From contig JAEMSI010000002.1 of NCBI GenBank assembly GCA_016462905.1, positions 41,848-105,847 on the forward strand: DNA of 64,000 nucleotides, written 5' to 3'. Source of the DNA: Polynucleobacter sp. Lineage in GTDB: Bacteria > Pseudomonadota > Gammaproteobacteria > Burkholderiales > Burkholderiaceae. The number at the start of each line of letters is the position of its first letter. Position 1 is the first letter of the stretch. Shown here one piece after another: positions 3,164 to 63,856 of the stretch. The notes below the pieces were generated by a model. The model was not told the origin of the DNA. It did no database searches and saw only the letters and a list, made by a program, of their open reading frames with translations. The position numbers were made by a program, and so were the translations under genes.

Positions 3164-3982
3164 TTAACTTGCGAAACTGTGCTCTGGCCCAGGAAATTTT
3201 CCTGATTTAACCTCGCGAACAAATGCTTTAATTGCACCTTCAATCGAGTTTGCTTCTGCCATAAAGTTTTTTACAAATTTTGCTGGTTTGCCTAAGTTTA
3301 GGCCCAGCATATCTTGCAGAACTAAGACTTGACCAGAGCAATCGGGACCAGCCCCAATACCGATAGTAGGGATTGATATTGAATGGCTTATTTTGGCCCC
3401 AAGACTCGATGGGATTGCCTCTAGAACTAGCATTTGCGCGCCTGCCTCAGCGCACATTTGCGCTTGTTCCAACATATGCGTAGCGGCATCGCGGGACTTT
3501 CCTTGAACTTTGTAGCCACCTAGAAGGTGCACCGATTGGGGAAGTAAGCCAAGATGAGCGCACACGGGAACACTCCGCTCAACCAAGTATCGAATCGTTT
3601 CAACTTGCCAATTTCCACCGCCCTCAAGCTTCACCATATCGGCACCAGCCCGCATCAGAAGGGCGGATGACTCTAGGGCTTGAACGGGGTCGCCATAGCT
3701 GGCAAACGGCAAATCAGCAATTAAAAAAGCATGCTGATTCACCCGTGAAACGCACCCTGTGTGATAGGCCATATCTTCAATACGGACTGGAGTTGTGCTG
3801 CTGTGTCCTTGAATTACATTACCCAAGGAGTCGCCGATCAAAATGACATCAACGCCACAATAATTTAAAAGTGCTGACATGGTTGAATCATAGGCAGTTA
3901 GTACAGCAATTTTTTCCCCTTCAGCATGCATTGCTAAAAGCTTGGTAATCGAAAGGGGTTTTTCAGTTTGCAGATAACTCAT
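3164..3982 (-). CDS. panB: 3-methyl-2-oxobutanoate hydroxymethyltransferase
   Basis: [23 protein letters not shown] and [15 protein letters not shown] motifs. Confidence 0.97.
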
Positions 3983-3999
3983 GGGAAGAGTTTAATGAA

Positions 4000-4509
4000 T
4001 TAATGAATCTGCTGACCACAATCGCAATTTTTGCAGGTTAAACGGGAAATTCGTTGGTGAGCTACTTTGGGCAGAAAATCTTTTAATTGCCCCACTTCTG
4101 GCCAAAAGAAATTGGGTTCAATTTCCAATAAGGGGAGTAAAACAAAGGATCTTTCTGTAATGCGGGGGTGCGGAAGGGTTAGATCAGTTTGATTTTGCTC
4201 AAATCCTTCATAAAATAAAATATCGATATCCAGGGTTCGTGGCGCATTGGTATAGGGACGTTCTCTACCAAACTGATGCTCAATCGATTGGCAAACATAA
4301 AGCAGGCCATAAGGATCTAGATCGGTCTCGATGCGGATTACCGAATTAATGTAGTCACCACCTATTGCGTCGATAGGGGCACTTTGATAGAAACAACTTT
4401 TATTAATAATTTGTACTTCAGTGCGTTGGGCTAGACAAACAATGGCGTCAGTAATAATCTGGCGAGCATCGCCTAAATTGCCACCAAACCCAATAAATGA
4501 AAAAGCCAT
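4000..4509 (-). CDS. folK: 2-amino-4-hydroxy-6-hydroxymethyldihydropteridine diphosphokinase (HPPK)
   Basis: IGFGGNLG, the HPPK signature R-x(5)-PRTLDIDIL and LPHPRITERSFVLLPL; lies downstream of pcnB. Confidence 0.96.
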   Translation of the reverse strand: MAFSFIGFGGNLGDARQIITDAIVCLAQRTEVQIINKSCFYQSAPIDAIGGDYINSVIRIETDLDPYGLLYVCQSIEHQFGRERPYTNAPRTLDIDILFYEGFEQNQTDLTLPHPRITERSFVLLPLLEIEPNFFWPEVGQLKDFLPKVAHQRISRLTCKNCDCGQQIH

Positions 4510-4551
4510 GTGCGCCTCTAAATAAATAGCATTTACTTTACTGAAAAAACC

Positions 4552-6036
4552 TTAGGTCTGCTTGGGGTCCCGATGGCCTTGGCTTACGGGCGTGGTTTCT
4601 GAGTCGAATGGGCTTGCGGCACCTGAATCATTAGGACTGGTTTTTTTACTGGGGCGTTTGCGTCTGCGTCGCGCAGTACTTTTATTTTCAGAGGACAGCG
4701 CTTCTGGTTTGGTATTCGATGCCTCCTTGGCTTGAGCCATCAGTTCACTTTGCTCATCCGGGCTAGAGCTAATAAATGAAGTCCACCATTGTGCTAAATT
4801 CGCAGGACATCCTCCCACATGACTTGGCAAAGAGCTGCGGAGTAACATAAAGTCGTAACCTGCTCGAAAGCGGGGAATTTCAAGCAGTCGATACGGATAC
4901 CGCCCTACGCGTTTATCAAAACGGGGTTGCATGGTCCAAATATCACGCATATCGCCTTCATGACGCCGTTGAATCACAATCCCGTTACTTTGCTGACTCA
5001 CCGTTTCATCCATTGCCGCATGGAGCGCTGGCAATTTTGGCATTCCTTGACTTTGAAAAAAGTCCCAATGTTTTACGAGTTCTGGCCACAAGAGAGCGGC
5101 GAATAAGAATCCAGGGGAAACTGATTTACCGGTTTGAATGCGCTCATCGGTATTGAGTAATGCCTGTTTTACAAAAGCACTTCCTTCGCCTGCATCCAGT
5201 ACTTTATCGAGAAGAGGCAGTAGACCATGGTGTAAGCCGGCTTCGCGTAAACCTTGAATAGCGCTCCACGCATAACCAGACATGAGTAATTTTAAAATTT
5301 CATCAAATAGCCGCGCACTAGGAACATCATGGATCAGATCGGCTAATTCAGCGATGGGTTGGCGAGTGCCTTTGTCAATTTCGAAGCCAGTTTTAGCAGC
5401 GAAACGAATCGCACGGAGCATTCGGATGGGATCTTCGCGGTAGCGTTTAGAGGCATCGCCAATCATGCGAATGGTTTTTGCGCCAATATCATTCATTCCG
5501 CCGTGATAATCGAGCACGGTTTCAGTCGCGGGGTCGTAATACATCGCGTTAATGGTGAAATCCCGCCGTGCTGCATCTTCCGCATGAGTACCCCAGACGT
5601 TGTCTCGTAAGATACGGCCACTTTCTGCAACATGTTCGCCAACACTTTCTAATACTGCTCTAAATGTCGACACTTCGATGATTTCGGGACGTTCTTTGCC
5701 AAAAAAAGTTACGTGCACAATTTGAAAGCGTCGTCCAATCAAGCGTGAACGGCGAAAACATTTCTGCACTTGATCGGGTGTTGCATTGGTGGCAACGTCA
5801 AAATCCTTGGGCGCTATTCCCAACACTAGATCACGCACCGCACCACCAACAATGTACGCTTTGAATCCAGCTTGTTGAAGGGTATGGGTAACCTTAACGG
5901 CATTTTTAGAAAGTAACTCAGGATTAATTCGATGGATTTTCTTGGGAACGCGATGGGCAACTAAAGCGGCGCCAGTTTGGTGCAATTTTGACCTAGGTCG
6001 TCGTCGAATCAGACGATCAAAAAATTGAGTGATCAA
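4552..6036 (-). CDS. pcnB: Poly(A) polymerase I
   Basis: VGGAVRDL..KDFDVAT nucleotidyltransferase motif, RRDFTINA and EDPIRMLRA, with a basic C-terminal tail. Likely TTG start at 6036 overlapping the upstream stop (TTGA); the ORF track extends to 6060. Confidence 0.96.
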   Translation of the reverse strand: MITQFFDRLIRRRPRSKLHQTGAALVAHRVPKKIHRINPELLSKNAVKVTHTLQQAGFKAYIVGGAVRDLVLGIAPKDFDVATNATPDQVQKCFRRSRLIGRRFQIVHVTFFGKERPEIIEVSTFRAVLESVGEHVAESGRILRDNVWGTHAEDAARRDFTINAMYYDPATETVLDYHGGMNDIGAKTIRMIGDASKRYREDPIRMLRAIRFAAKTGFEIDKGTRQPIAELADLIHDVPSARLFDEILKLLMSGYAWSAIQGLREAGLHHGLLPLLDKVLDAGEGSAFVKQALLNTDERIQTGKSVSPGFLFAALLWPELVKHWDFFQSQGMPKLPALHAAMDETVSQQSNGIVIQRRHEGDMRDIWTMQPRFDKRVGRYPYRLLEIPRFRAGYDFMLLRSSLPSHVGGCPANLAQWWTSFISSSPDEQSELMAQAKEASNTKPEALSSENKSTARRRRKRPSKKTSPNDSGAASPFDSETTPVSQGHRDPKQT

Positions 6037-6713
6037 GTAAATAATTCCAAAATAGGCCAATTCCGTTTTTGGGCCTCAGCGCGTAACTTCGAATCAGGGT
6101 TGGTGGCAACGGGGTTACTTACTTTTTCAAGTAAGGCTATATCATTCATCGAATCGGAATAAAAATAACTTTTTTCAACTGTCTCCCAAGATAAATCTAG
6201 GCTTTGAAGCCATTTTTCAACGCGCTTGACTTTGCCTTCCCGAAAACTGGGAATCCCGTTTACTTCCCCTGTATACCTTCCGTCATCTCGATTTCCCTCG
6301 GTAGCGGGTTCGGTAGCCACGAGATGATGAATGCCAAAGCGCGCAACAATTGGACGAGTAACAAAACTATTGGTTGCAGTAACAACACAACATACATCAC
6401 CAGCTTTTAAGTGGCGAAGCACCAAAGTAATTGCTGCAGAATTTAGTTTTTTATCAATCACATCAGTCATGAACTGATCATGCCACTCTTTCAATTGAAC
6501 GCGAGAATGTTGTGATAACGGTTTTAAAGCAAAACGTAAGAAACGATCAATATCCAACTTACCATGTTGATAGTCCTCATAGAATTGTTGATTGGCTTGC
6601 GCGTATTGATCGCCATCGACAACGCCAAGCTGAACTAGGAATTGTCCCCACTCATAGTCGCTATCAAATGGGATTAGAGTATGGTCTAAATCAAATAAGG
6701 CTAGCGTTGTCAT
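6033..6713 (-). CDS. HAD-IB family hydrolase (SerB-like phosphatase)
   Basis: FDLDHTL motif I, VVTAT motif II and YSDSMND motif IV; sits between hda and pcnB. Confidence 0.9.
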   Translation of the reverse strand: MTTLALFDLDHTLIPFDSDYEWGQFLVQLGVVDGDQYAQANQQFYEDYQHGKLDIDRFLRFALKPLSQHSRVQLKEWHDQFMTDVIDKKLNSAAITLVLRHLKAGDVCCVVTATNSFVTRPIVARFGIHHLVATEPATEGNRDDGRYTGEVNGIPSFREGKVKRVEKWLQSLDLSWETVEKSYFYSDSMNDIALLEKVSNPVATNPDSKLRAEAQKRNWPILELFT

Positions 6714-7480: not shown

Positions 7481-7488
7481 TACTGTAT

Positions 7489-8478: not shown

Positions 8479-8564
8479 GATGCTTTCATACTCTAGAATT
8501 CATTCATTCTAACGACCTAGTTCAAATAAGTTATTGTTTACACCTTTAGTAAGAGCCAAATTCT

Positions 8565-18428: not shown

Positions 18429-18573
18429 GGGAATATAGCGTAGGAATAGTGGAAAACCCCCATTTTTGGTGCAAAAACCTCATATTTTTGGGATTTCGGG
18501 ATTTTTTAGGGGCTTTTCGCTAAATGAAAAAGCAATAATTGCAGAGTTTTCATGAGTGATTAGAATGTACTTA

Positions 18574-18921
18574 ATGACTCGTTCTATTAAATCCCCTTCT
18601 GATGGAAATCCAATCAATCCCATTAAGGAAGATATCGTCCTACTTGAGCGTCAGGCGGAGAAAGTAAAACTCCCGGCGATGTATAAAGTATTACTTCTGA
18701 ATGATGATTACACTCCAATGGAATTTGTTGTGATGGTGATTCAAGAGTATTTCAATAAAGATCATGAAACAGCCACTCGAATTATGTTGCAAGTTCACTT
18801 AGCCGGTAAAGGCGTTTGCGGAATTTTTACGCGTGATCTTGCATCGACTAAAGTTCATCAAGTTGTTGAACGTTCCCGCGAAGCGGGTCACCCACTGCAG
18901 TGCACTATGGAGGAAGCATGA
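18574..18921 (+). CDS. clpS: ATP-dependent Clp protease adaptor ClpS
   Basis: [16 protein letters not shown] and [11 protein letters not shown] at 18574 is preferred because it follows TAGAAT by 7 nt; the ORF track starts at 18556. Confidence 0.96.
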
Positions 18922-27212: not shown

Positions 27213-27251
27213 TGGTCGCTTTCTGAATGACCTTGAATTATATTGTTGCTC

Positions 27252-27884
27252 ATGCATTCAATTGTCTCCTTGATTTCTGGAAGAGGTTCCAATCTTCAGG
27301 CCCTCGTCAAAGCCGCCCAGAATGAGGCTTGGCAGGCCCGTTTTGTGGCCGTGATTAGTAACCAACCGGATGCTAAAGGCCTTGATTTTGCTAGACAAAA
27401 TGGCATTCCTGCGATCGTAGTGAACCATCGTGATTTTGCTAGTCGGGAGGCGTTCGATGAGGCTTTAGCCAAGACGATTGATTCGTTTTCGCCGGATTTA
27501 ATTGCGTTAGCTGGTTTTATGAGGGTTCTTACAGACCCTTTCATTGATCGTTATCAAGGCCGAATGATCAATATTCACCCCTCATTACTACCTCATTTTC
27601 CGGGTCTTCATACCCATGAGCGTGCTTTAGAGGCGGGCGTAAAAAAACATGGCGCCAGCGTTCATTTTGTGACCAGGGTGGTTGATGAAGGACCTATTAT
27701 TTGTCAGGGTGAGGTGCCAGTTTTACCAAATGATGATGCCGATACTTTGGCGGCTCGGGTTTTAAAAATGGAACACAGGATTTACCCTTTGGCGGTTAAA
27801 TGGTTTATAAACGGGCGATTACATCAAGAAGGATCACAAGTGCAAATTAGCCCACCCGAATCACAATATATTGTTCAAGCATGA
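27252..27884 (+). CDS. purN: Phosphoribosylglycinamide formyltransferase
   Basis: LISGRGSNL, LAGFMRVL, INIHPSLLP and HFV...DEGP. Confidence 0.98.
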   Translation: MHSIVSLISGRGSNLQALVKAAQNEAWQARFVAVISNQPDAKGLDFARQNGIPAIVVNHRDFASREAFDEALAKTIDSFSPDLIALAGFMRVLTDPFIDRYQGRMINIHPSLLPHFPGLHTHERALEAGVKKHGASVHFVTRVVDEGPIICQGEVPVLPNDDADTLAARVLKMEHRIYPLAVKWFINGRLHQEGSQVQISPPESQYIVQA

Positions 27885-31876: not shown

Positions 31877-31912
31877 TTGGGTAGCATTCTTAGCTCTCGC
31901 TACAATATTGGA

Positions 31913-32359
31913 ATGACTACTTCTCAGGTTTTTCCGAATTCGTATTTGACCCTCAACTACAGGATCGTCCTGCCGAACGGGGAGGACTATATCAATACTT
32001 TTGTCGATGGTGCCGCTACTATTTTGATGGGATCTGGACAATTTGCGCCTTGTTTTGAAAAAGTGTTAATTGGTCTTGCTAAAGGTCAGCGCAAAAGCGC
32101 TGTGATTCGACCCGAAGAAGCATTTGGTCTTCATAAACAGGAATTAATCCAATTTGTATCGATGGCAACTCTGTTGGCTAATACCGATGAGGTTCCAGAG
32201 TTTGCTCCTGGTGATATGGTCGAATTTAATGCACCCAGCGGGGCTCAATACGCCGGTATTCTGCAATCGATTAATGAAGAAGGGGCTTGGTTTGACTTTA
32301 ATCATCCGCTAGCCGGTAAAGAGTTAATGTTTGAAGCAGAAATCGTAGCCATCCTTTAA
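31913..32359 (+). CDS. FKBP-type peptidyl-prolyl isomerase (SlpA/FkpB-like)
   Basis: LTLNYRI, GSGQF, PEEAFG and [14 protein letters not shown]; directly upstream of ispH; ATG at 31913. Confidence 0.9.
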
Positions 32360-35690: not shown

Positions 35691-35726
35691 AACCATTCCT
35701 TCCAATAAAACATTACGATATGAACC

Positions 35727-36632
35727 ATGAGCTCCGCTAGCCGCTTTACCAAAAAGTCACGCATCCTGATTGTAGGTTGCGGCGATATTGGTATGCGGGT
35801 TGCAAAACATCTCATGCTAAAGCAAGGCAAGGCATTTCAAATCTTCGCCCTTACATCAAAAAAACAACGCTTTGCAGAATTAAGAGCTGCGGGCATGAAA
35901 CCCATTTTGGGGGATTTGGATCAGGTAGACAGTCTTTGGAGAATCGCCTCAATTGCTTCTACCGTGATTCATTTGGCACCCCCTCAAAATTCAGGCAGTC
36001 ATGATCAGCGCACACGAAATCTAATCCAAATTTTATCTCAAGCCCCCCATTCTTTACGGAAGTTAGTCTATATTAGTACCACGGGGGTTTATGGTGATCA
36101 TCAAGGGGGGTGGGTTAATGAGACCACGCCTGTTCAACCCCTTAGCGATCGCGCTAAGAGAAGGGTCGATGCCGAACAAAGCGTGCGATTATTTGGGGCG
36201 ACACAAGGCGTCTCAATCAGTATTTTGCGAGTCCCTGGAATTTATGCGGCAGATCGCTTGCCCTTGGAGCGAATTCGCTCGCAAACTCCTGCAGTTTTAG
36301 CCTCAGAGGATTCGTACTCGAATCATATTCATGCAGATGATTTGGCTCGCTTAGTATGCGCAAGCATGTATTTTGGAAAACCACAAAGAGTCATTAATGC
36401 CTGTGATGGCGGCGACTTAAAAATGGGCGATTATTTTGATTTGGTGGCCGATAATTTCAAACTACAGCGAGTCCCGCGTTTACCAAGAAAAGAAGTGAAA
36501 GAATTAGTCAATCCAATGCTCTGGTCTTTTATGAATGAATCGCGCCGTATATCCAATCAACGCTTAGACGAATTAAAAACCCCCTTACATTATCCTAGCG
36601 TGCTGGATTTTTTAAAAACAATCGAGCGCTAA
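35727..36632 (+). CDS. NAD-dependent epimerase/atypical SDR family protein
   Basis: VGCGDIG Rossmann motif, YISTTGVYGD, LRVPGIY and NHIHADDLA. Confidence 0.88.
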   Translation: MSSASRFTKKSRILIVGCGDIGMRVAKHLMLKQGKAFQIFALTSKKQRFAELRAAGMKPILGDLDQVDSLWRIASIASTVIHLAPPQNSGSHDQRTRNLIQILSQAPHSLRKLVYISTTGVYGDHQGGWVNETTPVQPLSDRAKRRVDAEQSVRLFGATQGVSISILRVPGIYAADRLPLERIRSQTPAVLASEDSYSNHIHADDLARLVCASMYFGKPQRVINACDGGDLKMGDYFDLVADNFKLQRVPRLPRKEVKELVNPMLWSFMNESRRISNQRLDELKTPLHYPSVLDFLKTIER

Positions 36633-38425
36633 ATTGACTTCCAACTATCTTTCAATCCCACACTGCGGTTAAAAACAGGCTTGTCTATTTTTGAATCAAT
36701 TGCATCGGCAATAAAGTACCCATGCCGTTCAAATTGAAAACGCTCGCCTGGTTTTGCATGTTTCATGCAGGGCTCTAAATAAGCAGTGATGACTTGTTTT
36801 GAGTGAGGGTTGAGGTAATTTAAAAATTCCTTATCGCCACTATCTGGATTGGGGTCATTAAACAAATAATCATAAAGTCTTACCTCGGTTACCAATGCTT
36901 CATTTGCGCTAACCCAATGAATATTTCCTTTGACTTTGTAATTATTGGAGTCGGGTGTACCGCTTTTGCTATCCGGAAAATAGTTTGCTGTGACTGCGCT
37001 TACTTTTCCATTCGTATCTACTTGATACCCCGTGCACTCAATCACAAATCCGTGGCGCAGACGAACTCGTCCACCGGCCTGATCTCCTTTGGGAGGAAAT
37101 AAACGGAAGTAGCCTTTGACGGGCTCAATCATGAAATCATCGGCTTCGATCCATAGTTCGCGGGTAAAGTGAAACTCCCGTTTACCCCATTCTGGATGAT
37201 TGGGGTGTTTGGGGGCAGAGCAAGCTTCACTTTGATTAGCATCAACATTTTCAATGATCAATTTAAGTGGTTTTAAAACGGCTGTTGCTCGATGTGCTTT
37301 GACATCGAGATCATCTCTGAGCGCTTGCTCAAGAACGCTCATATCAATCCAGCTATCTGCTTTCGAAACCCCAATTCGTTCACAAAATAAACGCAGACTT
37401 TCGGGTGTGTATCCACGCCTACGAATACCGACGATCGTTGGCATACGCGGGTCATCCCACCCATCGACGCGCTGTTCTTCCACCAGCTGTAATAACTTTC
37501 TTTTGCTGGTGATGGTGTAAGTTAGATTCAAGCGGGCGAATTCATACTGTTGCGGGAGCGGCCCTGTAAATACTCCGATCTCTTTAAGAGCATTGAGAAT
37601 CCAATCGTACAAAGGCCGATTATTTTCAAATTCGAGCGTGCAAATGGAATGACTAATATTTTCTAGGGCATCGGAGATGCAATGGGTAAAGTCGTATAGG
37701 GGGTAAATACACCAACGATCACCAGTACGATGATGATGCGCATGACGAATTCGATAAATCACAGGGTCGCGCATCATAATATTGGGATGCTTCATATCGA
37801 TCTTTAGGCGTAAAACATGCTCTCCATCGAGATACTCGCCTGCACGCATAGCGCGAAATAAGACTAAATTTTCGTTTGAGTTTCTTACGCGAAAAGGGCT
37901 GTCTTGGCCTGGGGCGCTAAAATTTCCACGTTTGCTATGAATTTCATCGGCGCTTTGACTATCCACATAGGCTTTTCCCGCACCAATTAATTTTTCTGCA
38001 AATTCATAAAGCTGATCGAAATAATCGCTGGCGTAATATAAATGTTCACGACCATTTTCTTTCCATTCAAAACCAAGCCAGCGCACTGCATCTAATATAC
38101 CGTCCACATATTCGGTATCTTCTTTAACCGGATTAGTGTCGTCGAGTCGCATATGGCAACGACCTTTAGTGGGAAGTTGGTTGTAATCCTGCGCTAAGCC
38201 AAAATTCAGGCAAATACTCTTTGCGTGGCCAATATGCAAATAGCCATTTGGTTCCGGGGGAAAACGGGTGACCACGGCCGGTAATTCAAGACCGTTCGCA
38301 TCAACCCGTTTTAAAAATTTGCCCGAGCTTAAATCGTGGTCAATAATCTGTCGCAAAAAATTAGACGGTTCGCTCACCGTGTTTGTGGGCATATTTTTTG
38401 TTGGGTTTTTGGGATCTTGCGACAT
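36629..38425 (-). CDS. glnS: Glutamine--tRNA ligase
   Basis: TRFPPEPNGYLHIGH, DDTNP, YDFTHC, HSICTLEF, TSKR and QFER. Confidence 0.98.
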   Translation of the reverse strand: MSQDPKNPTKNMPTNTVSEPSNFLRQIIDHDLSSGKFLKRVDANGLELPAVVTRFPPEPNGYLHIGHAKSICLNFGLAQDYNQLPTKGRCHMRLDDTNPVKEDTEYVDGILDAVRWLGFEWKENGREHLYYASDYFDQLYEFAEKLIGAGKAYVDSQSADEIHSKRGNFSAPGQDSPFRVRNSNENLVLFRAMRAGEYLDGEHVLRLKIDMKHPNIMMRDPVIYRIRHAHHHRTGDRWCIYPLYDFTHCISDALENISHSICTLEFENNRPLYDWILNALKEIGVFTGPLPQQYEFARLNLTYTITSKRKLLQLVEEQRVDGWDDPRMPTIVGIRRRGYTPESLRLFCERIGVSKADSWIDMSVLEQALRDDLDVKAHRATAVLKPLKLIIENVDANQSEACSAPKHPNHPEWGKREFHFTRELWIEADDFMIEPVKGYFRLFPPKGDQAGGRVRLRHGFVIECTGYQVDTNGKVSAVTANYFPDSKSGTPDSNNYKVKGNIHWVSANEALVTEVRLYDYLFNDPNPDSGDKEFLNYLNPHSKQVITAYLEPCMKHAKPGERFQFERHGYFIADAIDSKIDKPVFNRSVGLKDSWKSI

Positions 38426-38443
38426 CCCTCTATTGTAGAGAAT

Positions 38444-38470
38444 AAAAAAGCCCGCAATTTGCGGGCTTTT
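38444..38470 (-). terminator. Intrinsic terminator after tctA
   Basis: Minus strand AAAAGCCCGCA-aat-TGCGGGCTTTTTT. Confidence 0.85.
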
Positions 38471-38490
38471 GAAAACAAGCTTGCGTCGAA

Positions 38491-40561: not shown

Positions 40562-40590
40562 TTGCCCTAGTTCCTTGCCAATGCGATAAT
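40562..40590 (+). promoter_or_regulatory. Sigma70 promoter of alaS, positioned for leaderless transcription
   Basis: TTGCCC (40562-67), 17-nt spacer ending in TG-C, GATAAT (40585-90), then 7 nt to the ATG with no SD. Confidence 0.65.
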
Positions 40591-40597
40591 CAAGTCT

Positions 40598-43237
40598 ATG
40601 AAAGTCTCCGAAATACGCCAAAAATACCTTGATTTTTTTGCCTCCAAAGGGCACCAAATTGTGGCATCAAGCCCCGTCGTGCCTGGGGATGACCCAACTT
40701 TACTCTTTACCAATGCTGGTATGAATCAGTTTAAGGATGTTTTTCTGGGGTTTGATAAGCGCTCCTATCAACGTGCTACTTCTGCTCAAAAATGCATTCG
40801 GGCGGGTGGTAAGCACAATGATTTAGACAATGTGGGCTATACCGCTCGGCACCATACTTTTTTCGAGATGTTGGGTAATTTTTCGTTTGGAGACTATTTT
40901 AAAAAAGAAGCGATTCAATTTGCGTGGGAATTATTAACCACGGTATTTCAGCTTCCTAAGGATCGATTGTGGGTTACGGTTTATGCAGAAGACGAAGAGG
41001 CTTACGCTATTTGGTTAAACCAAATTGGTATTCCAGCCGAGCGGATTGTCCGAATTGGTGATAACAAAGGGAGTCGCTATGCTTCCGATAATTTTTGGAT
41101 GATGGGCGACACCGGTCCTTGTGGTCCTTGCACTGAAATTTTTTATGATCATGGACCTGAAGTGGCGGGAGGACCTCCTGGTTCAGCCAATGAAGATGGA
41201 GACCGGTTCATTGAAATTTGGAACAACGTCTTCATGCAATTTAATCGCGATGAGGCAGGCAATATGAAGCCATTGCCAAAGCCTAGCGTGGATACTGGCA
41301 TGGGCTTAGAACGAATTGCCGCCGTTTTACAGCAGGTTCATTCGAATTATGAAATTGATTTATTTGTGCATTTGCTAAAAGCTGCCAAGGCTGCAGTAGA
41401 TAATGCAGGAGCAGGTCATTGCGATGCCAATAGCCCATCCTTGAAAGTGATTGCGGATCATATTCGCGCTTGTAGTTTTGTCATCGTTGATGGGGTGATC
41501 CCTGGAAATGCAGGTCGCGGTTATGTGCTACGTCGAATTGCGCGTCGTGCAATTCGGCATGGTTATAAATTGGGCGCACGCCAACCTTTCTTTTATCAGC
41601 TAGTGCCTGCTTTAGTGGCTGAGATGGGTGACGCTTATCCTGAATTACGTGCTTCACAAAATAAGGTCATGGAAGTGCTTCAGCAGGAAGAAGAACGTTT
41701 TTTCCAAACGATTGCCAATGGCATGGAAATATTAGAAGCGGCATTAGCAAAATCAACTAGCGCCACTAAGATGCTCGATGGTGAGACCGCCTTTCGTTTG
41801 CATGACACCTTTGGGTTTCCCCTAGACTTGACTGCTGATGTCTGCCGTGAACGTGGTGTCGCAGTTGATTCTGCTGGTTTTGAGGCTGCCATGGAAAAGC
41901 AGCGTGAGCAGGCACGCTCTTCCGGTAAATTTAAGATGACTCAGGGTTTAAGTTATTCGGGTAAACCAACGCAGTTTCATGGCTACGATTTAAATGTACA
42001 CACAGGCGCTCAAATTACCGCGATCTATCGCGATGGCCTTTCAGTAGACTCAGTCAAAGCAGGTGATCTGGCAGTAATTGTTCTCGATCACACCCCCTTT
42101 TATGCTGAATCGGGCGGCCAAGTGGGCGATTCGGGGGAGCTTAGAAATGAAAAATCGCATTTTTCAGTTGCCGATACCTTCAAAATTCAGTCTGATGTTT
42201 TTGGTCACCAAGGCGAGGTCTTGGAGGGTGAATTGAAAGTAGGTGATACCTTAGACGCCAAGATTAATTTAATTTCACGGCGTGAGACGATGCGCAATCA
42301 CAGCGCTACTCATCTCATGCACAAGGCTCTTCGCGAAGTGCTTGGCGATCATGTGCAGCAAAAAGGGTCCTTGGTTGACCCCCAAAAAACACGCTTTGAT
42401 TTTGCGCATACTGCGCCCGTAAGCCCCCATGAAATTCGACGTATTGAAGATCTGGTGAACGAAGAAATTTTGTCAAATGTGACAACCTCTGCCAAGGTCA
42501 TGCCGCTAGAAGATGCGCAAAAAACCGGTGCCATGATGTTATTTGGTGAAAAGTATGGATCCGAAGTCAGGGTTTTAGAGATAGGCAGCTCCAAAGAATT
42601 GTGCGGTGGAACACATGTGGCTAGAACAGGGGATATCGGTAGTTTTAAAATTACGTCCGAGAGCGGAGTGGCCGCAGGCATTCGTCGGATTGAGGCGGTG
42701 ACGGGTGCAAATACCATTCGGTTCTTGCAAGAACTTGAGGGGCGCTTACAAGATACGGCTGCGATTCTAAAAACCAACAGCCATGAATTGCCAACCCGAG
42801 TTGCGCAATTACAGGATAGTTTGAAGCAGCTCGAGCGCGAAATGCAAAAAGCCAATTCGAAATTTGCTGCCAGTCAGGGAGATGAGTTAGCAGCCAAGGC
42901 AATTGAGCTTAAAGGTTTAAAAGTATTAGCGGTTCAATTGGATGGGGTTGATCCAAAGATTTTGCGCGAAACCATGGATACTTTGAAGGATAAATTAAAA
43001 AGCGCCGTGATCGTCTTGGCCTCAGTTCAAGATGGCAAAGTGAGTTTAATTGCTGGAGTTACAGCCGATGCCATTAGTAAAGTTAAGGCGGGCGATTTGG
43101 TTAATTTTGTTGCCGAGCAAGTGGGTGGCAAGGGTGGTGGTAAGCCAGATATGGCGATGGCGGGGGGGACTAAGCCGGATGGTTTGAAAGCGGCCTTATC
43201 CGCAGTAGAGCCTTGGGTGGCAAAACGTCTTGCTTAA
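40598..43237 (+). CDS. alaS: Alanine--tRNA ligase
   Basis: [33 protein letters not shown], editing NHSATH...ELCGGTH and GGKGGG DHHA1 end. Confidence 0.99.
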
Positions 43238-45447: not shown

Positions 45448-46202
45448 TTTTTTTCTTTATTGAGCCGCCATAATTTCATATATCGTAAGTATGTTCCTTG
45501 CGCATTCGATTTGGCTAGTAAAAATCCTTGTCGACCATCTAAAAACCCCGCTCTAATAATATAAGTTCTAAAAAATGACCAAGCCCCATGCAATATGGCC
45601 TTAAAGGGGGTTGCAGTTTTGCCTTTTGCATAAGCTTGCTTTGCTGAGTCGGTTGAGTAGCGCTGCATTTTTTCCTCCACTTGCTTTGCATTCATAAAGC
45701 TGTAATGCAGCATCGGATTTTTTAATTTCTTACTTTGGCCTTGAACAATTAAGCGTTCGTGTACCAAGTCATCCGAAAATTGGGCAAAGCCCCTTTTAAA
45801 TAGACGATCTACATAGTCAGGCGTCCAACCAGAATGACGCATAAAGCGCCCTAAAAACCAAGAAAGCCTTGGGATGGCGAAGCATACTTGGGAACCAGGG
45901 TTTGCCAAGACCCATTTAATTTCTTGCCGCAGTTCTGGAGTAAGCCTTTCATCTGCGTCTAGGGAAATAACCCAATCTCCCGTCGCCATCGCTAAAGCCC
46001 GATTTTTTTGGGGCCCAAACCCTGGCCAATCGGGGGGGGAGGCAATTTCAGCAGAATACTGTCTAGCAATTTCTAGGGTGCGGTCGGAGCTCTCGGTATC
46101 CACCACAATAATTTGGCTTGCCAGCCCGTCTAGGGAGGCTAAACAATCGGCTAAATTAGCCTCTTCGTTGCGAGTTATGAGAATGGCTGATAAGGTGGGC
46201 AT
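45444..46202 (-). CDS. GT2 family glycosyltransferase (WaaE/KdtX-like)
   Basis: LSAILITRNE, VDTESSDRT, GFGPQKNRA, SLDADE and VHE; typical msbA neighbour. Confidence 0.88.
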   Translation of the reverse strand: MPTLSAILITRNEEANLADCLASLDGLASQIIVVDTESSDRTLEIARQYSAEIASPPDWPGFGPQKNRALAMATGDWVISLDADERLTPELRQEIKWVLANPGSQVCFAIPRLSWFLGRFMRHSGWTPDYVDRLFKRGFAQFSDDLVHERLIVQGQSKKLKNPMLHYSFMNAKQVEEKMQRYSTDSAKQAYAKGKTATPFKAILHGAWSFFRTYIIRAGFLDGRQGFLLAKSNAQGTYLRYMKLWRLNKEKK

Positions 46203-46212
46203 AATTCATTAT

Positions 46213-47973
46213 ATGAATGCCCAAGACCGTCAATCCCTAAACCGCCTAGTTCGCTATTTACGACCCCATAGTGGCTTGATGATTGGGGCTTTACTTTCCA
46301 TGGTGGTAGTGGCTGGGGCCGAGACTTCGATTCCCGCCTTAATGAAGCCCCTATTAGATAAGGGCTTTACTGGCGAGATGAATGAAAAGCTATGGCTGGT
46401 ACCCGCTTTTCTAGTCGGCCTTGCTTTTGTTCGAAGTATGGCTCAATTTTTATCAAATTATTTATTAAGCAGAGTAATTAATGCAATTTTGCTTAAATTG
46501 CGTGAGCAAATGTTTCATCGACTTTTGCAAACCAGCACTGAATATTTTCAGAAGAACCCAGCATCCAGCTTGATTAATGCGGTTGTTTTTGAGGTTAATA
46601 ATGTATTGACCGTGATGGGCGGAATGTTGATCAGTCTAGTGCGCGATTCATTAACTGTAATCGGTTTAATGGGGTATTTGATTTATTTGAATTGGCGCCT
46701 AACCCTAGTTGTTTTAATTATTTTTCCGATTATTGCGTATGTGATGAGTATCATTAATCGCCGTTTACGGGGCCTTAATCGTGAACAACAAAAATTAACT
46801 AGTGATTTAGCTTATATCGTAGAGGAAGCAGCCGGCGGCCATAAAATCATTAAAGTCCATGGGGGCGAGGATTATGAGATGAAACGCTTTATGGAAAAAG
46901 CAGATCGTCTTCGGCAATTTGCCCTTAAGTCGGCAGTTGCCGGCGGGCTCAATCAGCCGATTACCCAGTTGGTTGCTTCAATGGCTTTGTCGATAGTTTT
47001 AGTCATTGCGATTATGCAATCAGCCAGTCAGGGAGTCACAGTGGGTGGTTTTGCTGCTTTTATTACTGCCATGCTGTTAGTAATTTCGCCATTAAAACAC
47101 CTTGCGGATATTAATCAACCCCTGCAGCGGGGATTAACTGCTGCAGAAATGATTTTCGGTTTGATGGATCAGCCGATTGAGGAAGATGAATTCCAAAAAT
47201 CCGGAATGAAACGAATTGAAAAAGCACAAGGCGCCATTCAATTTGATCACGTGTCATTTTCTTACGATCAAGAGCAGGGTCGCAAAGATGCTCTGATTGA
47301 TATTAATTTTATTATTCAACCCGGAGAGGTCATTGCTCTGGTTGGGCCCTCTGGCGGAGGGAAGTCAACTTTAGTTAATTTGTTGCCGCGTTTTTTCAAA
47401 CCAAAGTCGGGCCAAATTCGCTTAGATGGCATTCCTATAGATGAACTAGCACTCCGCGATTTACGTCGGCAAATCGCTTTTGTTAGCCAAGATGTTATTT
47501 TATTTAACGATACGATTGCCGCAAATGTTGCCTACGGTTCAAGCTTGTCTGATATTAAGCGTGAATACGTTATCAAAGCTCTCGAGGCCGCTAACTTAAG
47601 TTCGCTAATTCAGGATTTGCCAGAAGGTATCGATACCGTGATTGGGGATAATGGAAATCGTCTTTCAGGTGGTCAGAGACAGCGTTTAGCAATTGCTAGA
47701 GCGGTTTATAAAAATGCGCCCATATTGATATTGGATGAAGCTACTTCAGCCTTAGATTCGGAATCAGAGCGTCAGGTACAAGATGCCTTGGAGCGGCTAA
47801 TGATCGGCAGAACTACTTTAGTTATTGCCCATCGCTTATCAACCATTGAACATGCTAACCGTATCGCAGTATTAGATCAGGGCAGAATGGTTGAATTTGG
47901 AAGCCATCAAGATCTAATTACAAAAGACGGTGTTTATGCCAACCTGTATAAGTTACAGTTTGCAAATACTTAG
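46213..47973 (+). CDS. msbA: Lipid A-core flippase MsbA
   Basis: Six-TM ABC transporter domain plus GPSGGGKS, LSGGQRQR and LDEATSALD. ATG at 46213; the ORF-track extension is antisense to the GT2 gene. Confidence 0.95.
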   Translation: MNAQDRQSLNRLVRYLRPHSGLMIGALLSMVVVAGAETSIPALMKPLLDKGFTGEMNEKLWLVPAFLVGLAFVRSMAQFLSNYLLSRVINAILLKLREQMFHRLLQTSTEYFQKNPASSLINAVVFEVNNVLTVMGGMLISLVRDSLTVIGLMGYLIYLNWRLTLVVLIIFPIIAYVMSIINRRLRGLNREQQKLTSDLAYIVEEAAGGHKIIKVHGGEDYEMKRFMEKADRLRQFALKSAVAGGLNQPITQLVASMALSIVLVIAIMQSASQGVTVGGFAAFITAMLLVISPLKHLADINQPLQRGLTAAEMIFGLMDQPIEEDEFQKSGMKRIEKAQGAIQFDHVSFSYDQEQGRKDALIDINFIIQPGEVIALVGPSGGGKSTLVNLLPRFFKPKSGQIRLDGIPIDELALRDLRRQIAFVSQDVILFNDTIAANVAYGSSLSDIKREYVIKALEAANLSSLIQDLPEGIDTVIGDNGNRLSGGQRQRLAIARAVYKNAPILILDEATSALDSESERQVQDALERLMIGRTTLVIAHRLSTIEHANRIAVLDQGRMVEFGSHQDLITKDGVYANLYKLQFANT

Positions 47974-52659: not shown

Positions 52660-53949
52660 TTATTTGAGCGCTCTATGTCCAATATCGTTACGATATTGCA
52701 TTCCATTAAATTGAATCTGTTGAATTAAATCATAAGCCTTTTGTTGAGCGCCGCGGAGAGTTCCTGATAAACCAATGACGCAAAGGACTCTGCCACCGCT
52801 AGTCACGATTTTTCCGTCGATAAGTTGGGTGCCGGCATGAAAAACCATTTGCTCACCATCATCCGACACTACACTTGACGGAAGCCCATGAATAATATCC
52901 CCCAGTTTTGGGGTATTTGGATAGTTTGCGGAGGCGATTACGACACCCAATGCAATCCGGCGATCCCACTCCAATTCAACCTCATTTAATTTTCCATCAA
53001 CCGCCTGATTTAAAGCAAAGACTAAGTCACTCTTGAGGCGCGCCATAATCGGTTGCGTTTCGGGATCACCCATTCGGCAATTAAATTCTAAGGTTTTTAC
53101 CTGACCACTAGGATGAATCATTAAACCCGCATAAAGAAAACCCGTATAGGGAATACCATCTGTAGCCATTCCTTGTACAGTGGGCATAATAATTTCACGC
53201 AGTACTTTTGCGTGTATTTCGGGGCTGACTACAGGTGCTGGTGAGTAGGCCCCCATACCACCCGTATTGGGTCCTAAGTCACCATCTAGCAAGCGCTTGT
53301 GATCCTGGCTGGTAGCTAGAGCGAGCACGTGTTTGCCGTCAACCAAGACGATAAAACTCGCTTCTTCACCTTCTAAAAATTCTTCAATCACGACTCTAGC
53401 GCCTGCATCCCCTAATTGATTATCAGATAGCATCATTTCTACTGCAGCATGAGCTTCAGTTAGGTTCATTGCCACCACTACACCTTTACCAGCCGCTAAT
53501 CCATCCGCTTTAATAACAATCGGAGCACCTTTTAATTCGATGTACTCATGCGCTTCAAGGGCATTTGAAAATGTGCGATATTCGGCGGTTGGGATTTGGT
53601 GCCGTTTCATGAAAGACTTGGCAAAGTCTTTAGAGGATTCGAGTTGCGCTGCTAATTGGCTGGGTCCAAATATACGCAAGCCTTGATTACGAAAGACGTC
53701 AACGATACCCTGAGCTAAGGGAGCTTCTGGACCAACTACAGTCAGGTGAATTTTTTCTCGCTTAGCGAAATCGGCCAGATCCTGTAAATCACGAAGGGCA
53801 ATATTTTCAATCCCATCGATTTTATTTTTGGCTAATGCTGTGCCACCATTACCAGGCGCAACGTACACTTTCTGTACGCTTGGCGATTGCGCCATTTTCC
53901 AAGCTAATGCATGCTCTCTGCCGCCGGACCCAATTAATAAAATTTTCAT
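52660..53949 (-). CDS. purD: Phosphoribosylamine--glycine ligase
   Basis: GSGGREHA, KADGLAAGKGV, NTGGMG, EFNCRMGDPE and TSGGRV. Confidence 0.99.
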   Translation of the reverse strand: MKILLIGSGGREHALAWKMAQSPSVQKVYVAPGNGGTALAKNKIDGIENIALRDLQDLADFAKREKIHLTVVGPEAPLAQGIVDVFRNQGLRIFGPSQLAAQLESSKDFAKSFMKRHQIPTAEYRTFSNALEAHEYIELKGAPIVIKADGLAAGKGVVVAMNLTEAHAAVEMMLSDNQLGDAGARVVIEEFLEGEEASFIVLVDGKHVLALATSQDHKRLLDGDLGPNTGGMGAYSPAPVVSPEIHAKVLREIIMPTVQGMATDGIPYTGFLYAGLMIHPSGQVKTLEFNCRMGDPETQPIMARLKSDLVFALNQAVDGKLNEVELEWDRRIALGVVIASANYPNTPKLGDIIHGLPSSVVSDDGEQMVFHAGTQLIDGKIVTSGGRVLCVIGLSGTLRGAQQKAYDLIQQIQFNGMQYRNDIGHRALK

Positions 53950-53970
53950 TCGATGATTTTCGCTAAAACC

Positions 53971-55969: not shown

Positions 55970-55970
55970 G

Positions 55971-58416: not shown

Positions 58417-58425
58417 GATTGATAT

Positions 58426-59367: not shown

Positions 59368-59382
59368 ATTGATGAATGCTGG

Positions 59383-60537: not shown

Positions 60538-61649
60538 TTTCTTATCAAAAACCGTGGAAGTTGCCTGCGCCACCAAGCGATTGATGGATTAATCCGATTG
60601 CGAATCAAAAATAGGGCAATCACCAATGCGAATACATGAATTGGCCAAATTGCCAATGCGAAATTAAGCCTTCCTTGTGAGACGTAATTTTGACTCAGGT
60701 TCAATAGATTGCTATAGAGCAGATAAAGTAAAACCGCGTAAAACAACGCTGTGTAGTTGCCTAACCGAGGGTTTACATAGGCAAGGGGAATAGCAATGAA
60801 AACTAATCCAAGTGCCATTAAGGGCAGGCCCATTCGCCAGAGTAATTCACCCATGTGCGAATTAATCAAGGCAGGGTTATCTTGATTGATTAACTCCAGG
60901 ACTGTTTTTTCTCGGTCGCGTGGATTAGGTGGTTTAATTTCTTTGTTACGGAGTATGGTCTCGTATTGATCAAATTCTAGAATGCGGAAATTGGCTTGGG
61001 TTGGTTGCCCCTCATAACGACGGCCATGCGATAAAACCACTTTTTTTTCTCCGTTGACTGAATTTTCAATATAGCCATCAGCAGCTACCACAATACTCAG
61101 TTTTTGATTGCGGTTATCTGCGACAAAAATATTTTTTACTAATCCCTTATCTATATCTAGTTCTTCAATAAAAAAAACCCGGTCGGCTTTAGCGGACTCA
61201 CGAAATTGGCCAGCTGTTACCATAGATACATCATCGCGTTGTTGAAAGCGCTGACTAATAATGCTCGATTCACGATTCGCCCAAGGCCAAACAATTAAAG
61301 CCAGTATGCCGATTACCACAATGAGCGGCCAGGCAAATTTAAATATCGGACCTATTAAATTGGTGATGCTAAGACCACTTGCGAACCAGACAATCATCTC
61401 AGAGTCTTTATACCAACGAACCAATACGATTAAAACTGCAATGAACAGAGAGACGGTAAGCAATACCGCCATATAAGCTAATGTGGCTAGTGCAATGAGA
61501 ACTAAAGCATCTTCGGGGTTGACTGATCCATTTGCTGCAAAACCTAAAATACGAATTACCAGCGTGGTAATCATGATGGTAACCAGCACCAAAAAAACTC
61601 CCCCTGTAGTTAGGCTGAGTTCACGTCGCAGGGCTTTTTCAAAAATCAT
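60534..61649 (-). CDS. lptF: LPS export ABC transporter permease LptF
   Basis: MIFEKALRREL, RWYKDSEMIVWFASG and ELLWRMGLP; divergent from pepA. Confidence 0.94.
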   Translation of the reverse strand: MIFEKALRRELSLTTGGVFLVLVTIMITTLVIRILGFAANGSVNPEDALVLIALATLAYMAVLLTVSLFIAVLIVLVRWYKDSEMIVWFASGLSITNLIGPIFKFAWPLIVVIGILALIVWPWANRESSIISQRFQQRDDVSMVTAGQFRESAKADRVFFIEELDIDKGLVKNIFVADNRNQKLSIVVAADGYIENSVNGEKKVVLSHGRRYEGQPTQANFRILEFDQYETILRNKEIKPPNPRDREKTVLELINQDNPALINSHMGELLWRMGLPLMALGLVFIAIPLAYVNPRLGNYTALFYAVLLYLLYSNLLNLSQNYVSQGRLNFALAIWPIHVFALVIALFLIRNRINPSIAWWRRQLPRFLIRK

Positions 61650-61790
61650 TTAGAGTGGGCAAAAAGTCATTATTTTTTTGGTAGGTGGATAATAGAGACA
61701 ATCGTTTTAGTTTGGATCTGCCAATAGGCCTATTTAGGCAGGCCTATATTAGGACCCCAATTCAGAATCTTAAAGGATTAAAAAGAAGCC

Positions 61791-63359
61791 ATGACAATTC
61801 AATTTAGCACGAAAACTCTTGCCGAAACGGATTTTAAAAGCCCCAAAGCATTAGGCGCGGTCGCTGCATTGCAAACCGATTGTTTGGTCATTGCTTATCG
61901 AGGAGCGGTTGGTGGGGGGGTCGGTGAAAATTTGATGAAATTAGACCGATTGACTGGGGGCGCCATTGCACGGGCAACGGAATTAGGCGACTTAGAAAAC
62001 AAGCTTGGGGCCACCTTAATCTTAAGGAGTGAACCGGTATGGCTTGCGAACGGCCTCAGGGCAAGAAGGCTCCTTTTAGTGGCTTTGGGCGAGGATGGTG
62101 ATTTGACTGCATTTGCTAAGGCAGCGCGAGCTTGCGCAAAGGCTTTGAGCGGATCGGGTATTAAAAATGCCACTTTAGTTTTGCAATCCTTTTTCCCTTC
62201 CTCAAAAACAGGATTAACAGCAAGTATGTTGCATGAGAGGGTCCGTTTAATTTCGCAATTGGTCGGTGAACAGGTTTATCGTTTTGGGGCCCGCCAACCA
62301 GAGATGAAAACTAAACCAAAAGAAAAAGCAGATAACTTGGCCGAGCTGACTTTTTTAGTCAATACCAAGCAGGCAACTTTGGTTAAAGTGGCTGTGCGTG
62401 AGGGCGATGCCTTGGTCAACGGTATGAATCTTGCCAAGGATTTAGGTAATTTACCCCCCAATGTGTGTAATCCAAGTTACTTAGCCAATTCTGCAAAACA
62501 ATTAAGCAAAAGTACTAAATTAAAAGTACAGGTACTAGAGGAAAAGCAAATTGAATCTCTTGGAATGGGAGCTTTCTTGGCTGTCACTAAGGGCTCAGAA
62601 ACCCCGCCAAAATTTATTGTGATACGTCATGATGGCGGTAAAGCAAATGATGAACCTATTGTATTGGTTGGCAAGGGCATTACTTTTGATACGGGGGGTA
62701 TTTCCTTAAAGCCAGGTGAAGCGATGGATGAAATGAAATATGACATGTGTGGGGCGGCTTCGGTGATGGGAACGATGTATTCAGTAGCACTTTTAAACCT
62801 AAAGCGCAACGTCATTGGTGTCATACCTACCTGCGAAAACATGCCTTCTGGAAAAGCATCTCGACCAGGCGATATTGTAAAAAGTATGTCGGGTCAGACC
62901 ATAGAAATTCTTAATACCGATGCAGAAGGGCGTTTAATTTTATGCGATGCCCTCACTTATGTAGAGCGATTTAAACCCAAAGCGGTAATCGACATCGCTA
63001 CCTTAACGGGGGCTTGTGTGATTGCCTTAGGAAGTGTCCATAGCGGATTGTTTTCGAATAACGAATCCTTATCCAATGCTTTGATCACTGCCGGGCAAGC
63101 CTCTTTAGATACGGTATGGCGCTTGCCTTTGGATGCCGCTTATCAAGAACAGTTGAAATCGAATTTTGCTGATATGGCCAATATTGGCGGCAGGCCAGCG
63201 GGAAGTGTAACGGCAGCCTGTTTTTTAGCGCGTTTTACTGAAAAGTACAACTGGGCGCATTTGGACATCGCTGGTACGGCATGGAAAGGCGGGGCTGCTA
63301 AAGGTTCTACTGGACGTCCTGTGCCCTTGCTACTCAATTATTTGTTAGCTCTTCATTAG
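61791..63359 (+). CDS. pepA: Leucyl aminopeptidase (M17)
   Basis: VGKGITFDTGG, MKYDMCG, NTDAEGRL, ATLTGA and HLDIAG. Confidence 0.98.
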   Translation: MTIQFSTKTLAETDFKSPKALGAVAALQTDCLVIAYRGAVGGGVGENLMKLDRLTGGAIARATELGDLENKLGATLILRSEPVWLANGLRARRLLLVALGEDGDLTAFAKAARACAKALSGSGIKNATLVLQSFFPSSKTGLTASMLHERVRLISQLVGEQVYRFGARQPEMKTKPKEKADNLAELTFLVNTKQATLVKVAVREGDALVNGMNLAKDLGNLPPNVCNPSYLANSAKQLSKSTKLKVQVLEEKQIESLGMGAFLAVTKGSETPPKFIVIRHDGGKANDEPIVLVGKGITFDTGGISLKPGEAMDEMKYDMCGAASVMGTMYSVALLNLKRNVIGVIPTCENMPSGKASRPGDIVKSMSGQTIEILNTDAEGRLILCDALTYVERFKPKAVIDIATLTGACVIALGSVHSGLFSNNESLSNALITAGQASLDTVWRLPLDAAYQEQLKSNFADMANIGGRPAGSVTAACFLARFTEKYNWAHLDIAGTAWKGGAAKGSTGRPVPLLLNYLLALH

Positions 63360-63388
63360 GCGTTCATGAGAGCATAAATAATTCCTTT

Positions 63389-63856
63389 ATGGCAAGAATT
63401 GATTTTCATAGCAATGTAGCAGATAAGCTTTTGTACGCATGTCGTTTGGCGCGTAAAATTATGAGCAGCAGTGAGGATCAGAATCGTACGATTGTTTTTA
63501 CTGGAGAGATCGCCGATCTAAAAAAATTAGATGGCCTTTTATGGAGCTTTAGTAAAACCGATTTTCTACCACATTGTTTTGCTAGCGATGATACGGCGCA
63601 AGAAACACCCGTTATCCTGGTGGCAAGATCTGCTTTAGGGGATTTAAAAGCATTGCCGCACAATGATGTATTTGTACATTTATCGAATCAAATGCTACCA
63701 GACATCGATTCAATCATTGCTCGTTTTCCCCGTTTAATTGAGATAGTCAGTATTCTTGAGGACGAGCGATTAGCGGGCCGTGAGCGCTATAAAGCTTATC
63801 AAACTTTAGGTCACGAGTTGCATCATTTTGACCAATCGAAAAATAATCCAAACTAA
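63389..63856 (+). CDS. holC: DNA polymerase III subunit chi
   Basis: MARIDFH, LDGLLWSF...FLPH and GRERYKAY; follows pepA. Confidence 0.9.
   Translation: MARIDFHSNVADKLLYACRLARKIMSSSEDQNRTIVFTGEIADLKKLDGLLWSFSKTDFLPHCFASDDTAQETPVILVARSALGDLKALPHNDVFVHLSNQMLPDIDSIIARFPRLIEIVSILEDERLAGRERYKAYQTLGHELHHFDQSKNNPN

Follow-up and report, generated by a model that had tools for sequence, protein, structure and literature searches.

The leaderless mRNAs of Escherichia coli, exemplified by lambda cI and Tn1721 tetR, carry a 5′-terminal AUG, lack a Shine–Dalgarno (SD) sequence, strictly need AUG and belong to rare accessory or regulatory genes. Leaderless initiation is usually deemed marginal in Proteobacteria, to which the cultivable and ecologically dominant freshwater genus Polynucleobacter belongs. 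Bidirectional or symmetric −10 promoters, the subject of work by Warman and co-workers in 2021 (Nature Microbiology), reportedly drive divergent transcription. The leaderless genes of bacteria have an established predictor, a TA-like signal located some 12 nt 5′ of the start codon, and this signature is common in Actinobacteria and Deinococcus-Thermus (PMC3160421, PMC6028130). In the classification of GeneMarkS-2, ‘group C’ genomes, for which 25–50% of operons are reported as predicted leaderless, make up 5.6% of Proteobacteria only (PMC6028130). In the family Burkholderiaceae, differential RNA sequencing (dRNA-seq) of Cupriavidus metallidurans CH34 found 4.67% of primary transcription start sites (TSSs) to be leaderless, a class defined by a 5′ untranslated region of <5 nt and enriched for transcription regulators and replication/repair genes; the same paper cites Burkholderia cenocepacia for leaderless mRNAs (PMC7563307). 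The present analysis deals with a stretch of 64,000 nt from a Polynucleobacter genome, hereafter the window, and with the short hexamers that stand immediately before the ATG codons of several of its genes. A sequence-only reading of the window had listed eleven genes with a −10 hexamer 5–7 nt before the ATG and no usable SD, and had proposed leaderless translation for a substantial housekeeping set, with the caveat that the enrichment needed a formal test.

Hexamers of the −10 type are strongly over-represented at one exact distance from the start codons of this genome, and nine of the eleven window cases are conserved in the genus. The hexamers would be sigma-70-type −10 elements from which RNA polymerase would start on the A of the ATG or within 1–2 nt of it; the mRNAs would then begin with 5′-AUG without an SD sequence, and ribosomes would bind the 5′-terminal AUG directly by the leaderless route. 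Most of the conserved cases probably give leaderless mRNAs (0–2 nt). The sequences show a motif at a precise distance, confined to gene starts with ATG, more frequent at genes that are divergent or open a unit, and conserved among members of the genus; we infer where the TSS lies and that translation is leaderless. The idea that −10 boxes abutting ATGs imply leaderless housekeeping mRNAs thus finds support in the positional enrichment, the ATG specificity, the first-in-unit bias, the hierarchy of tolerated mismatches and the conservation, as detailed below.

The window corresponds to C49:41848-105847 of an assembly of 1.84 Mb in 85 contigs (genome G000; 44% guanine plus cytosine, GC). The loci closest to its glutaminyl-tRNA synthetase (GlnRS) are nearly all from Polynucleobacter, the best with 79% amino-acid identity, and those next in line come from Cupriavidus and Ralstonia. 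Genes were called with a Markov-model caller of open reading frames (ORFs) written ad hoc, which yielded 1,712 genes and 95% genome coverage. Positions are expressed by the distance d, the number of nt between the 3′ end of the −10 hexamer and the start codon. Three enrichment analyses were performed, none using upstream sequence for start choice. The first was limited to 283 genes with unambiguous starts, i.e. with a first start candidate lacking a rival within 30 codons. The second was a census of every ATG of the genome, split into those that lie within the first quarter (5′) of a gene ORF and share its frame, and the remaining 47,723. The third took starts from coding potential and start-codon type only and used 200 dinucleotide-preserving shuffles.

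TANNNT at d = 6 precedes 30 of the 283 genes with unambiguous starts (10.6%), compared with about 2.1% at every other d between 0 and 59 (binomial p = 1e-12), and 19 of these 30 hexamers are TAnAAT. The census of all ATGs counts 50 occurrences of TAnAAT-N6-ATG at the in-frame ATGs of gene starts, with 17 at N7, 10 at N8 and about 3 at other spacings, while the remaining 47,723 ATGs display no N6 peak (28 versus about 30). With starts chosen by coding potential, TANNNT at d = 6 is observed 106 times versus 41.6 ± 6.2 in the shuffles (z = 10.4, shuffle maximum 62), and TAnAAT 42 times versus 5.1 ± 2.2 (z = 16.5). The formal test of TANNNT against start distance with shuffled controls is hence positive in all three analyses. 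The peak lies at d = 6 with a shoulder at d = 7–8, and d = 5 as a class is not enriched in either the all-ATG census or the coding-potential set. Of the originally proposed 5–7 nt range, d = 6 and d = 7 therefore stand, and d = 5 falls as a class even if one of its members, TATAAT+5 of the GT2 gene, is individually conserved. The peak recurs in a second, complete Polynucleobacter genome, G105, where an 800 kb sample contains 14 TAnAAT hexamers at d = 6 versus about 1.

The hexamers behave as promoter elements in several respects. The TAnAAT peak at d = 6 exists at ATG only (49 versus about 3), with 3 cases at GTG and none at TTG, as is expected for leaderless initiation; in line with this, 53 of 57 strong calls start with ATG. 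Substitution of the first T is tolerated, [GC]ATAAT being enriched at d = 6–7 (16 versus about 2) in a class to which the boxes of alaS and msbA belong. Without the A at position 2 the signal nearly vanishes (T[CGT]nAAT is barely enriched), and without the last T it disappears (TAnAA[ACG], 6 versus about 12); the AATAAT seen at holC shows no genome-wide enrichment at d = 6. This tolerance matches −10 recognition by sigma-70, for which A-11 and T-7 are indispensable and T-12 is tolerant. The 6–7 nt between box and ATG vary freely among relatives and are too short to accommodate an SD at working distance.

Gene arrangement points in the same direction. Genes with a hexamer at d = 6 are divergent from their upstream neighbour in 51% of cases versus 23% for other genes (p = 8e-11), and a strong or d = 6 signature is found in 98 of 733 unit-first genes (13%). 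About one-quarter of signature genes, panB included, lie ≤25 nt after a co-directional gene. Signature genes have a median divergent gap of 67.5 nt, compared with 137 nt for the others, and a signature on at least one side characterizes 26 of 35 divergent pairs separated by ≤50 nt versus 28 of 128 separated by >100 nt (p = 2e-8). In several divergent gaps of 22–40 nt there are two back-to-back −10 boxes only, each 6 nt from its ATG; among those listed in Table 1, one separates fpg and another gpmA from its neighbour.

Table 1. Coordinates of the −10-like hexamers and start codons in the window (window positions), and of short divergent gaps of the genome (contig positions)
Feature	Strand	−35-like element	−10-like hexamer	Spacer to ATG	ATG	Whole element or gap	Remark
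panB	−		TAAACT 3989-3994	6 nt	3980-3982	3980..3994	
clpS	+		TAGAAT 18561-18566	7 nt	18574	18561..18576	
purN	+		TATATT 27239-27244	7 nt	27252	27239..27254	
FKBP-type isomerase gene	+		TACAAT 31901-31906	6 nt	31913	31901..31915	
SDR-like gene	+		TACGAT 35714-35719	7 nt	35727	35714..35729	
glnS	−		TACAAT 38432-38437	6 nt	38423-38425	38423..38437	
alaS	+	TTGCCC 40562-40567 (17-nt spacer to the hexamer)	GATAAT 40585-40590	7 nt	40598	40562..40600	
msbA	+		CATAAT 46200-46205	7 nt	46213-46215	46200..46215	
GT2 glycosyltransferase gene	−		TATAAT 46208-46213	5 nt	46200-46202	46200..46213	
purD	−		GAAAAT	6 nt		53947..53961	Not supported as leaderless
holC	+		AATAAT	6 nt		63377..63391	Not supported as leaderless
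Divergent gap, 22 nt			Two, back to back	6 nt each		G000:C41:55104-55127	
Divergent gap, 34 nt			Two, back to back	6 nt each		G000:C49:25153-25188	
Divergent gap, 35 nt			Two, back to back	6 nt each		G000:C41:30182-30218	

All eleven hexamers, spacers and ATGs of the sequence-only reading were retrieved where it had placed them, and the names panB, clpS, purN, FKBP-type isomerase, glnS, msbA, GT2-like glycosyltransferase, purD and holC were confirmed by NCBIfam; no NCBIfam match was found for the SDR gene. Conservation was examined in relatives from the genus with 71–80% identity in alanyl-tRNA synthetase (AlaRS). Throughout the genus, the nine conserved cases keep their hexamer at a set distance from the ATG, and the intervening 6–7 nt are free. 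For panB, a TANNNT hexamer at +6 is kept in the three genus relatives that have a match (TACACT, TAAGGT and TAAACT); since folK precedes by 17 nt on the same strand, the panB promoter would be internal. The clpS hexamer TAGAAT is invariant in six relatives, at +7 in five and at +6 in G004, with a variable spacer. The purN gene, divergent from its neighbour, retains AATTATATT in seven of seven relatives, with TATATT at +6 or +7. The FKBP box is likewise found in seven of seven (TACAAT+6 in five, TAAAAT+6 in G006 and G007), as is the SDR box (TACGAT or TACTAT, at +7 but at +6 in G007), the latter within a divergent gap of only 30 nt.

The presence of two aminoacyl-tRNA synthetase genes in the set, as originally proposed, is upheld by the conservation of both boxes. 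In glnS, TACAAT is invariant in 72 of 72 loci of the Polynucleobacter clade, with an in-frame ATG at +6 in 68, at +7 in one and at +8 in three, while the spacer between them takes >20 variants. An adjacent box is absent from eight Cupriavidus/Ralstonia loci, those of Ralstonia having TAAAAT about 29 nt upstream. In most glnS loci, the 40 nt or so 5′ of TACAAT also contain a terminator-like hairpin, GCGGGC and then a T run (window 38438-38480, minus strand), and the T run sits at the would-be −35 position. In alaS, GATAAT or CATAAT at +7 is found in 16 of the 17 genus genomes with the locus, the exception being G004 with TAATAAT; the 7-nt spacer varies, and the same 16 genomes have TTGCCC, TTTACC or TTTACG at N17. 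In genomes of other families, the −10-like boxes of alaS lie 30–45 nt upstream. Directly 5′ of the alaS −10 box, GTGCCAATGC (or GGTCAATGC) is conserved in most of the genus (window 40568-40584) and could be an operator. The AlaRS of E. coli autoregulates at its own promoter.

The msbA and GT2 genes are arranged on opposite strands (window 46196-46218) with start codons 10 nt apart, so that each start codon overlaps the −10 box of its partner, and this layout is conserved in the genus. Of 24 genus loci, 23 have an unchanged GGCATAATTCATTAT-ATGAA; the 20-nt element GGCATAATTCATTATATGAA is likewise invariant in 23 of 24, including three loci with otherwise differing upstream sequence. For the GT2 gene, with d = 5, the putative leaderless start is argued solely by this conserved interlocking with msbA.

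The two hexamers ranked as weaker from the outset did not hold, in agreement with that ranking, the nine main cases being the conserved ones. The GAAAAT of purD is not conserved in 23 relatives, and the gene follows a same-strand upstream gene after 21 nt; the AATAAT of holC is neither conserved in 23 relatives nor enriched genome-wide, and the gene lies 29 nt after a co-directional one. Both were rejected as leaderless. The genes initially contrasted with the set as SD-led do possess SDs of AAGGA/GGAG type: the motifs are placed at 5–8 nt in dnaJ, icd, tusA, tctB and qor, and rpmB has TACAAT about 23 nt upstream, then AAGGAG.

Beyond the window, comparison with orthologs in G105 shows that TANNNT at +6 is kept in 6 of 11 strong d = 6 calls (7 of 11 at 5–8 nt) versus 3 of 283 non-signature controls (p = 4e-8). 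For fpg, accD, ychF, gpmA, accA, mpl and dnaE, the start codons are validated by profile alignments that open at residue 1–3.

The best-surviving alternative places the signal in RNA. The hexamers would be transcribed as A/U-rich, S1-type translation enhancers replacing the SD in leadered mRNAs that originate from more distant promoters, and it can draw on the 43% of genes without an SD-like motif, which imply that some SD-independent leadered initiation must exist, and on the hexamers not being accompanied by a −35 element. However, a recognition hierarchy of the DNA type (A-11 and T-7 above T-12) is not expected of an RNA element, nor are a spacing equal to the exact −10-to-TSS distance and a preference for divergent first genes over operon-internal ones; moreover, divergent gaps of 10–40 nt leave no room for another promoter and a leader, unless these are inside the neighbouring gene, and alaS has its conserved −35-like box at N17. 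Altogether, an RNA-level element is improbable. Still less probable is that the promoters are real but the true translation starts lie downstream of the assigned ATGs, so that the mRNAs would be normally leadered. The starts used here are indeed predicted, not measured, and the N-termini of ClpS and GlnRS vary in length among relatives; nevertheless, many profile alignments begin at residue 1–3, the AlaRS N-terminus MKVxEIRQ begins at the assigned ATG in every relative, and the peak is ATG-specific, with the ATG conserved at a fixed distance from the box.

Chance was a natural concern, given that TANNNT is frequent in the AT-rich spacers just 5′ of genes: with a background of about 2–2.5% per position, a search range of 5–7 nt captures about 7% of genes by chance, and the hexamers of purD, holC and accD resemble such cases. 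As a general explanation, chance is refuted by the z values of both motifs against dinucleotide shuffles, by the flat profiles at other spacings and at non-start ATGs, and by hexamers that are conserved where spacers vary; with only a very slight likelihood left, it survives for individual non-conserved genes. Least credible is an artefact of start calling, in which a TAA or TAG at −12 closes the upstream frame and leads ORF-based calling to over-select such hexamers: although 17 of the 30 hexamers found before unambiguous starts open with TAA or TAG, this explanation was rejected on the lack of enrichment at other in-frame offsets (d = 0, 3, 9 and 12) and on the in-frame N9 control (32 versus 79 for N6), TACAAT and TATAAT being in addition equally strongly enriched and only 9 of 129 d = 6 hexamers coinciding with the stop codon of the upstream gene.

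A few points nonetheless weigh against reading the hexamers as promoters of leaderless mRNAs. The 129 d = 6 genes show no enrichment of a −35 TTGACA (a match of at least 4/6 in 9% versus 15% of controls) or of a TGn extended −10 (5% versus 5%). The promoters of this class would be ‘−10 only’, a layout usual for actinobacterial leaderless promoters, apart from that of alaS with its conserved −35-like box. At d = 7–8, the transcript may carry 1–2 leader bases. In the G105 ortholog test, 4 of 11 strong calls are not conserved, and the TAAAAT+6 of accD exists in G000 only, being absent from two other Polynucleobacter genomes; accD thus appears to be a lineage-specific or chance member, and, because such strong calls are not conserved, the signature set contains members of this kind. 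Gene calls and start choices depend on the ad hoc caller, and the count of 162 signature genes (9.5%), obtained with an upstream-aware start model and including about 40 that chance alone would give, is partly circular. Finally, a literature search found no TSS mapping of Polynucleobacter and no paper on its leaderless mRNAs.

The size of the set follows from two figures, an upstream-blind excess over background of about 90 genes (5%) and the upstream-aware count minus its chance component, which together give about 90–120 genes, i.e. 5–7% of genes (about 1 in 15) and about 10–13% of transcription units. The term ‘substantial’ is to be read as these proportions, which stay well below those of Actinobacteria. 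When 40 strong candidates from the rest of the genome were typed with NCBIfam, most proved to be housekeeping enzymes, largely of biosynthesis or replication, and one only a regulator (LysR). Among them are purL, dnaE, accA, accD, tsaB, thiL, mpl, ychF, a TatD-family nuclease gene and fpg, as well as gshA, birA, gpmA, glcD, dcd, argH, pdxH, cysM and kdsD.

SD usage in the genome as a whole is low, about 30% of genes having a 4–5-mer SD and 43% lacking any SD-like trimer, which fits the weak-signal ‘group X’ that GeneMarkS-2 assigned to 38% of Burkholderiales (PMC6028130). A strong SD precedes accD in other Burkholderiaceae genera and none does so in Polynucleobacter genomes, which suggests a general erosion of SDs in the genus. 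The conserved 3′ end of 16S rRNA, sought for a check of the anti-SD, was not found in any contig of G000, a draft that seems to lack the rRNA operon.

The phylogenetic extent of the signature was estimated in 101 Burkholderiales genomes by comparing TAnAAT-N6-ATG with the in-frame N9 control. N6 exceeds N9 in 83 of them, significantly in 25, and the two Polynucleobacter genomes of the sample rank first and second with 25.5 and 25.9 excess sites/Mb, compared with a mean of 2.8 in the other 99 and 11.5 in the next best. The signature is densest in Polynucleobacter among the 101 and is not peculiar to it, occurring at lower density across Burkholderiales. A survey of the family gave 43–53 excess sites in five Polynucleobacter genomes and about 15–40 in genomes of Burkholderia or Cupriavidus size, with three other small-genome genera intermediate; its control was the reversed pattern only, its values per Mb are noisy for tiny AT-rich genomes (0.2–0.5 Mb), and it supports no ranking. 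Three observations were made along the way. The largest absolute excess of the family sample belongs to G151 (genus g96, 2.0 Mb), with 359 TAnAAT-N6-ATG versus 203 for the reversed control. In G025 and G085 (genus g8 of the same order), TAnAAT-N9-ATG is found 109 and 116 times versus 62 and 58 for N6, N9 being about 4-fold above the reversed control, and this genus may favour a different distance between box and ATG. In G076, many contigs have one and the same string, TAAAATCCAAGCCCCATG, at position 48-65; it is also met elsewhere and probably marks a multicopy insertion sequence that breaks the assembly.

Comparison across genera gives a view on how the arrangement may have arisen. In fpg (G000:C41:29346-30182), TACAAT stands 6 nt before the ATG in three Polynucleobacter genomes, whereas about a dozen other Burkholderiaceae genomes, from most of the other genera sampled, share a TACAAT conserved some 39 nt upstream of the ATG, in most of them as part of TTGTAACGCGCTCGCTACAAT; fpg looks like a clean case of leader deletion. 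Since fpg, alaS and glnS have distant boxes or no adjacent ones in other genera, comparison indicates that their leaders would have been lost in the Polynucleobacter lineage. It is possible, if rather doubtful, that this loss was part of genome streamlining in Polynucleobacter, with promoters of essential genes pulled against their start codons and divergent gaps shrunk to 10–40 nt. Were this so, streamlining would account for the densest leaderless signature of the 101 sampled Burkholderiales genomes and for divergent regions of 10–40 nt holding only two back-to-back or interlocked −10 boxes, and core functions of a free-living proteobacterium, such as two aminoacyl-tRNA synthetases, the alpha subunit of DNA polymerase III and the lipid A exporter, would depend on leaderless translation.

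As judged from its genome sequences, Polynucleobacter appears to use leaderless initiation for essential genes, genus-wide, and offers a proteobacterial system for studying the leaderless translation of core genes. In practical terms, starts in these genomes will be misplaced by gene finders built on the presence of an SD, and very short divergent gaps are not to be taken as annotation errors. Leader loss and the compactness of intergenic regions appear to be linked, which provides a testable hypothesis on the streamlining of regulatory DNA.

Compared with known systems, the Polynucleobacter genes resemble the ‘TA-led’ genes of Actinobacteria and Deinococcus-Thermus by a TANNNT hexamer 6–8 nt before the start of first genes and by the lack of an SD. 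As in group C, SD-led genes coexist in the same genome and promoters are often without a recognizable −35; on the other hand, the proportion of units is, by our own estimate, about 10–13% here versus 25–50%, the host is a proteobacterium with 44% GC, and the hexamer is close to a full TAnAAT and not a bare TANNNT. With C. metallidurans CH34, which belongs to the same family, Polynucleobacter shares a minority leaderless class, here predicted; unlike in CH34, the 40 typed candidates are mostly biosynthetic enzymes with a single regulator. In addition, alaS, glnS and fpg are leadered in relatives of Cupriavidus, Ralstonia or Burkholderia size, unlike in Polynucleobacter, where the density of the signature per Mb is about 4–8 times higher. 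The back-to-back or overlapping hexamers on opposite strands, 10 nt for msbA/GT2 and 22–40 nt for other pairs, recall bidirectional −10 promoters, with the difference that both transcripts would be leaderless here and that a start codon can sit inside the promoter of the partner. Like lambda cI and tetR, the genes have an AUG at the predicted 5′ end, no SD and an ATG-only peak; unlike them, they include essential chromosomal genes (alaS, glnS, dnaE and msbA) in which the signature is conserved throughout the genus. The mechanism itself is already known, and the novelty lies in the host genus, the density, the housekeeping gene set, the conservation and the very short divergent spacers. A weaker form of the signature occurs widely in Burkholderiales, so that what is gained here concerns its degree and the genes involved.

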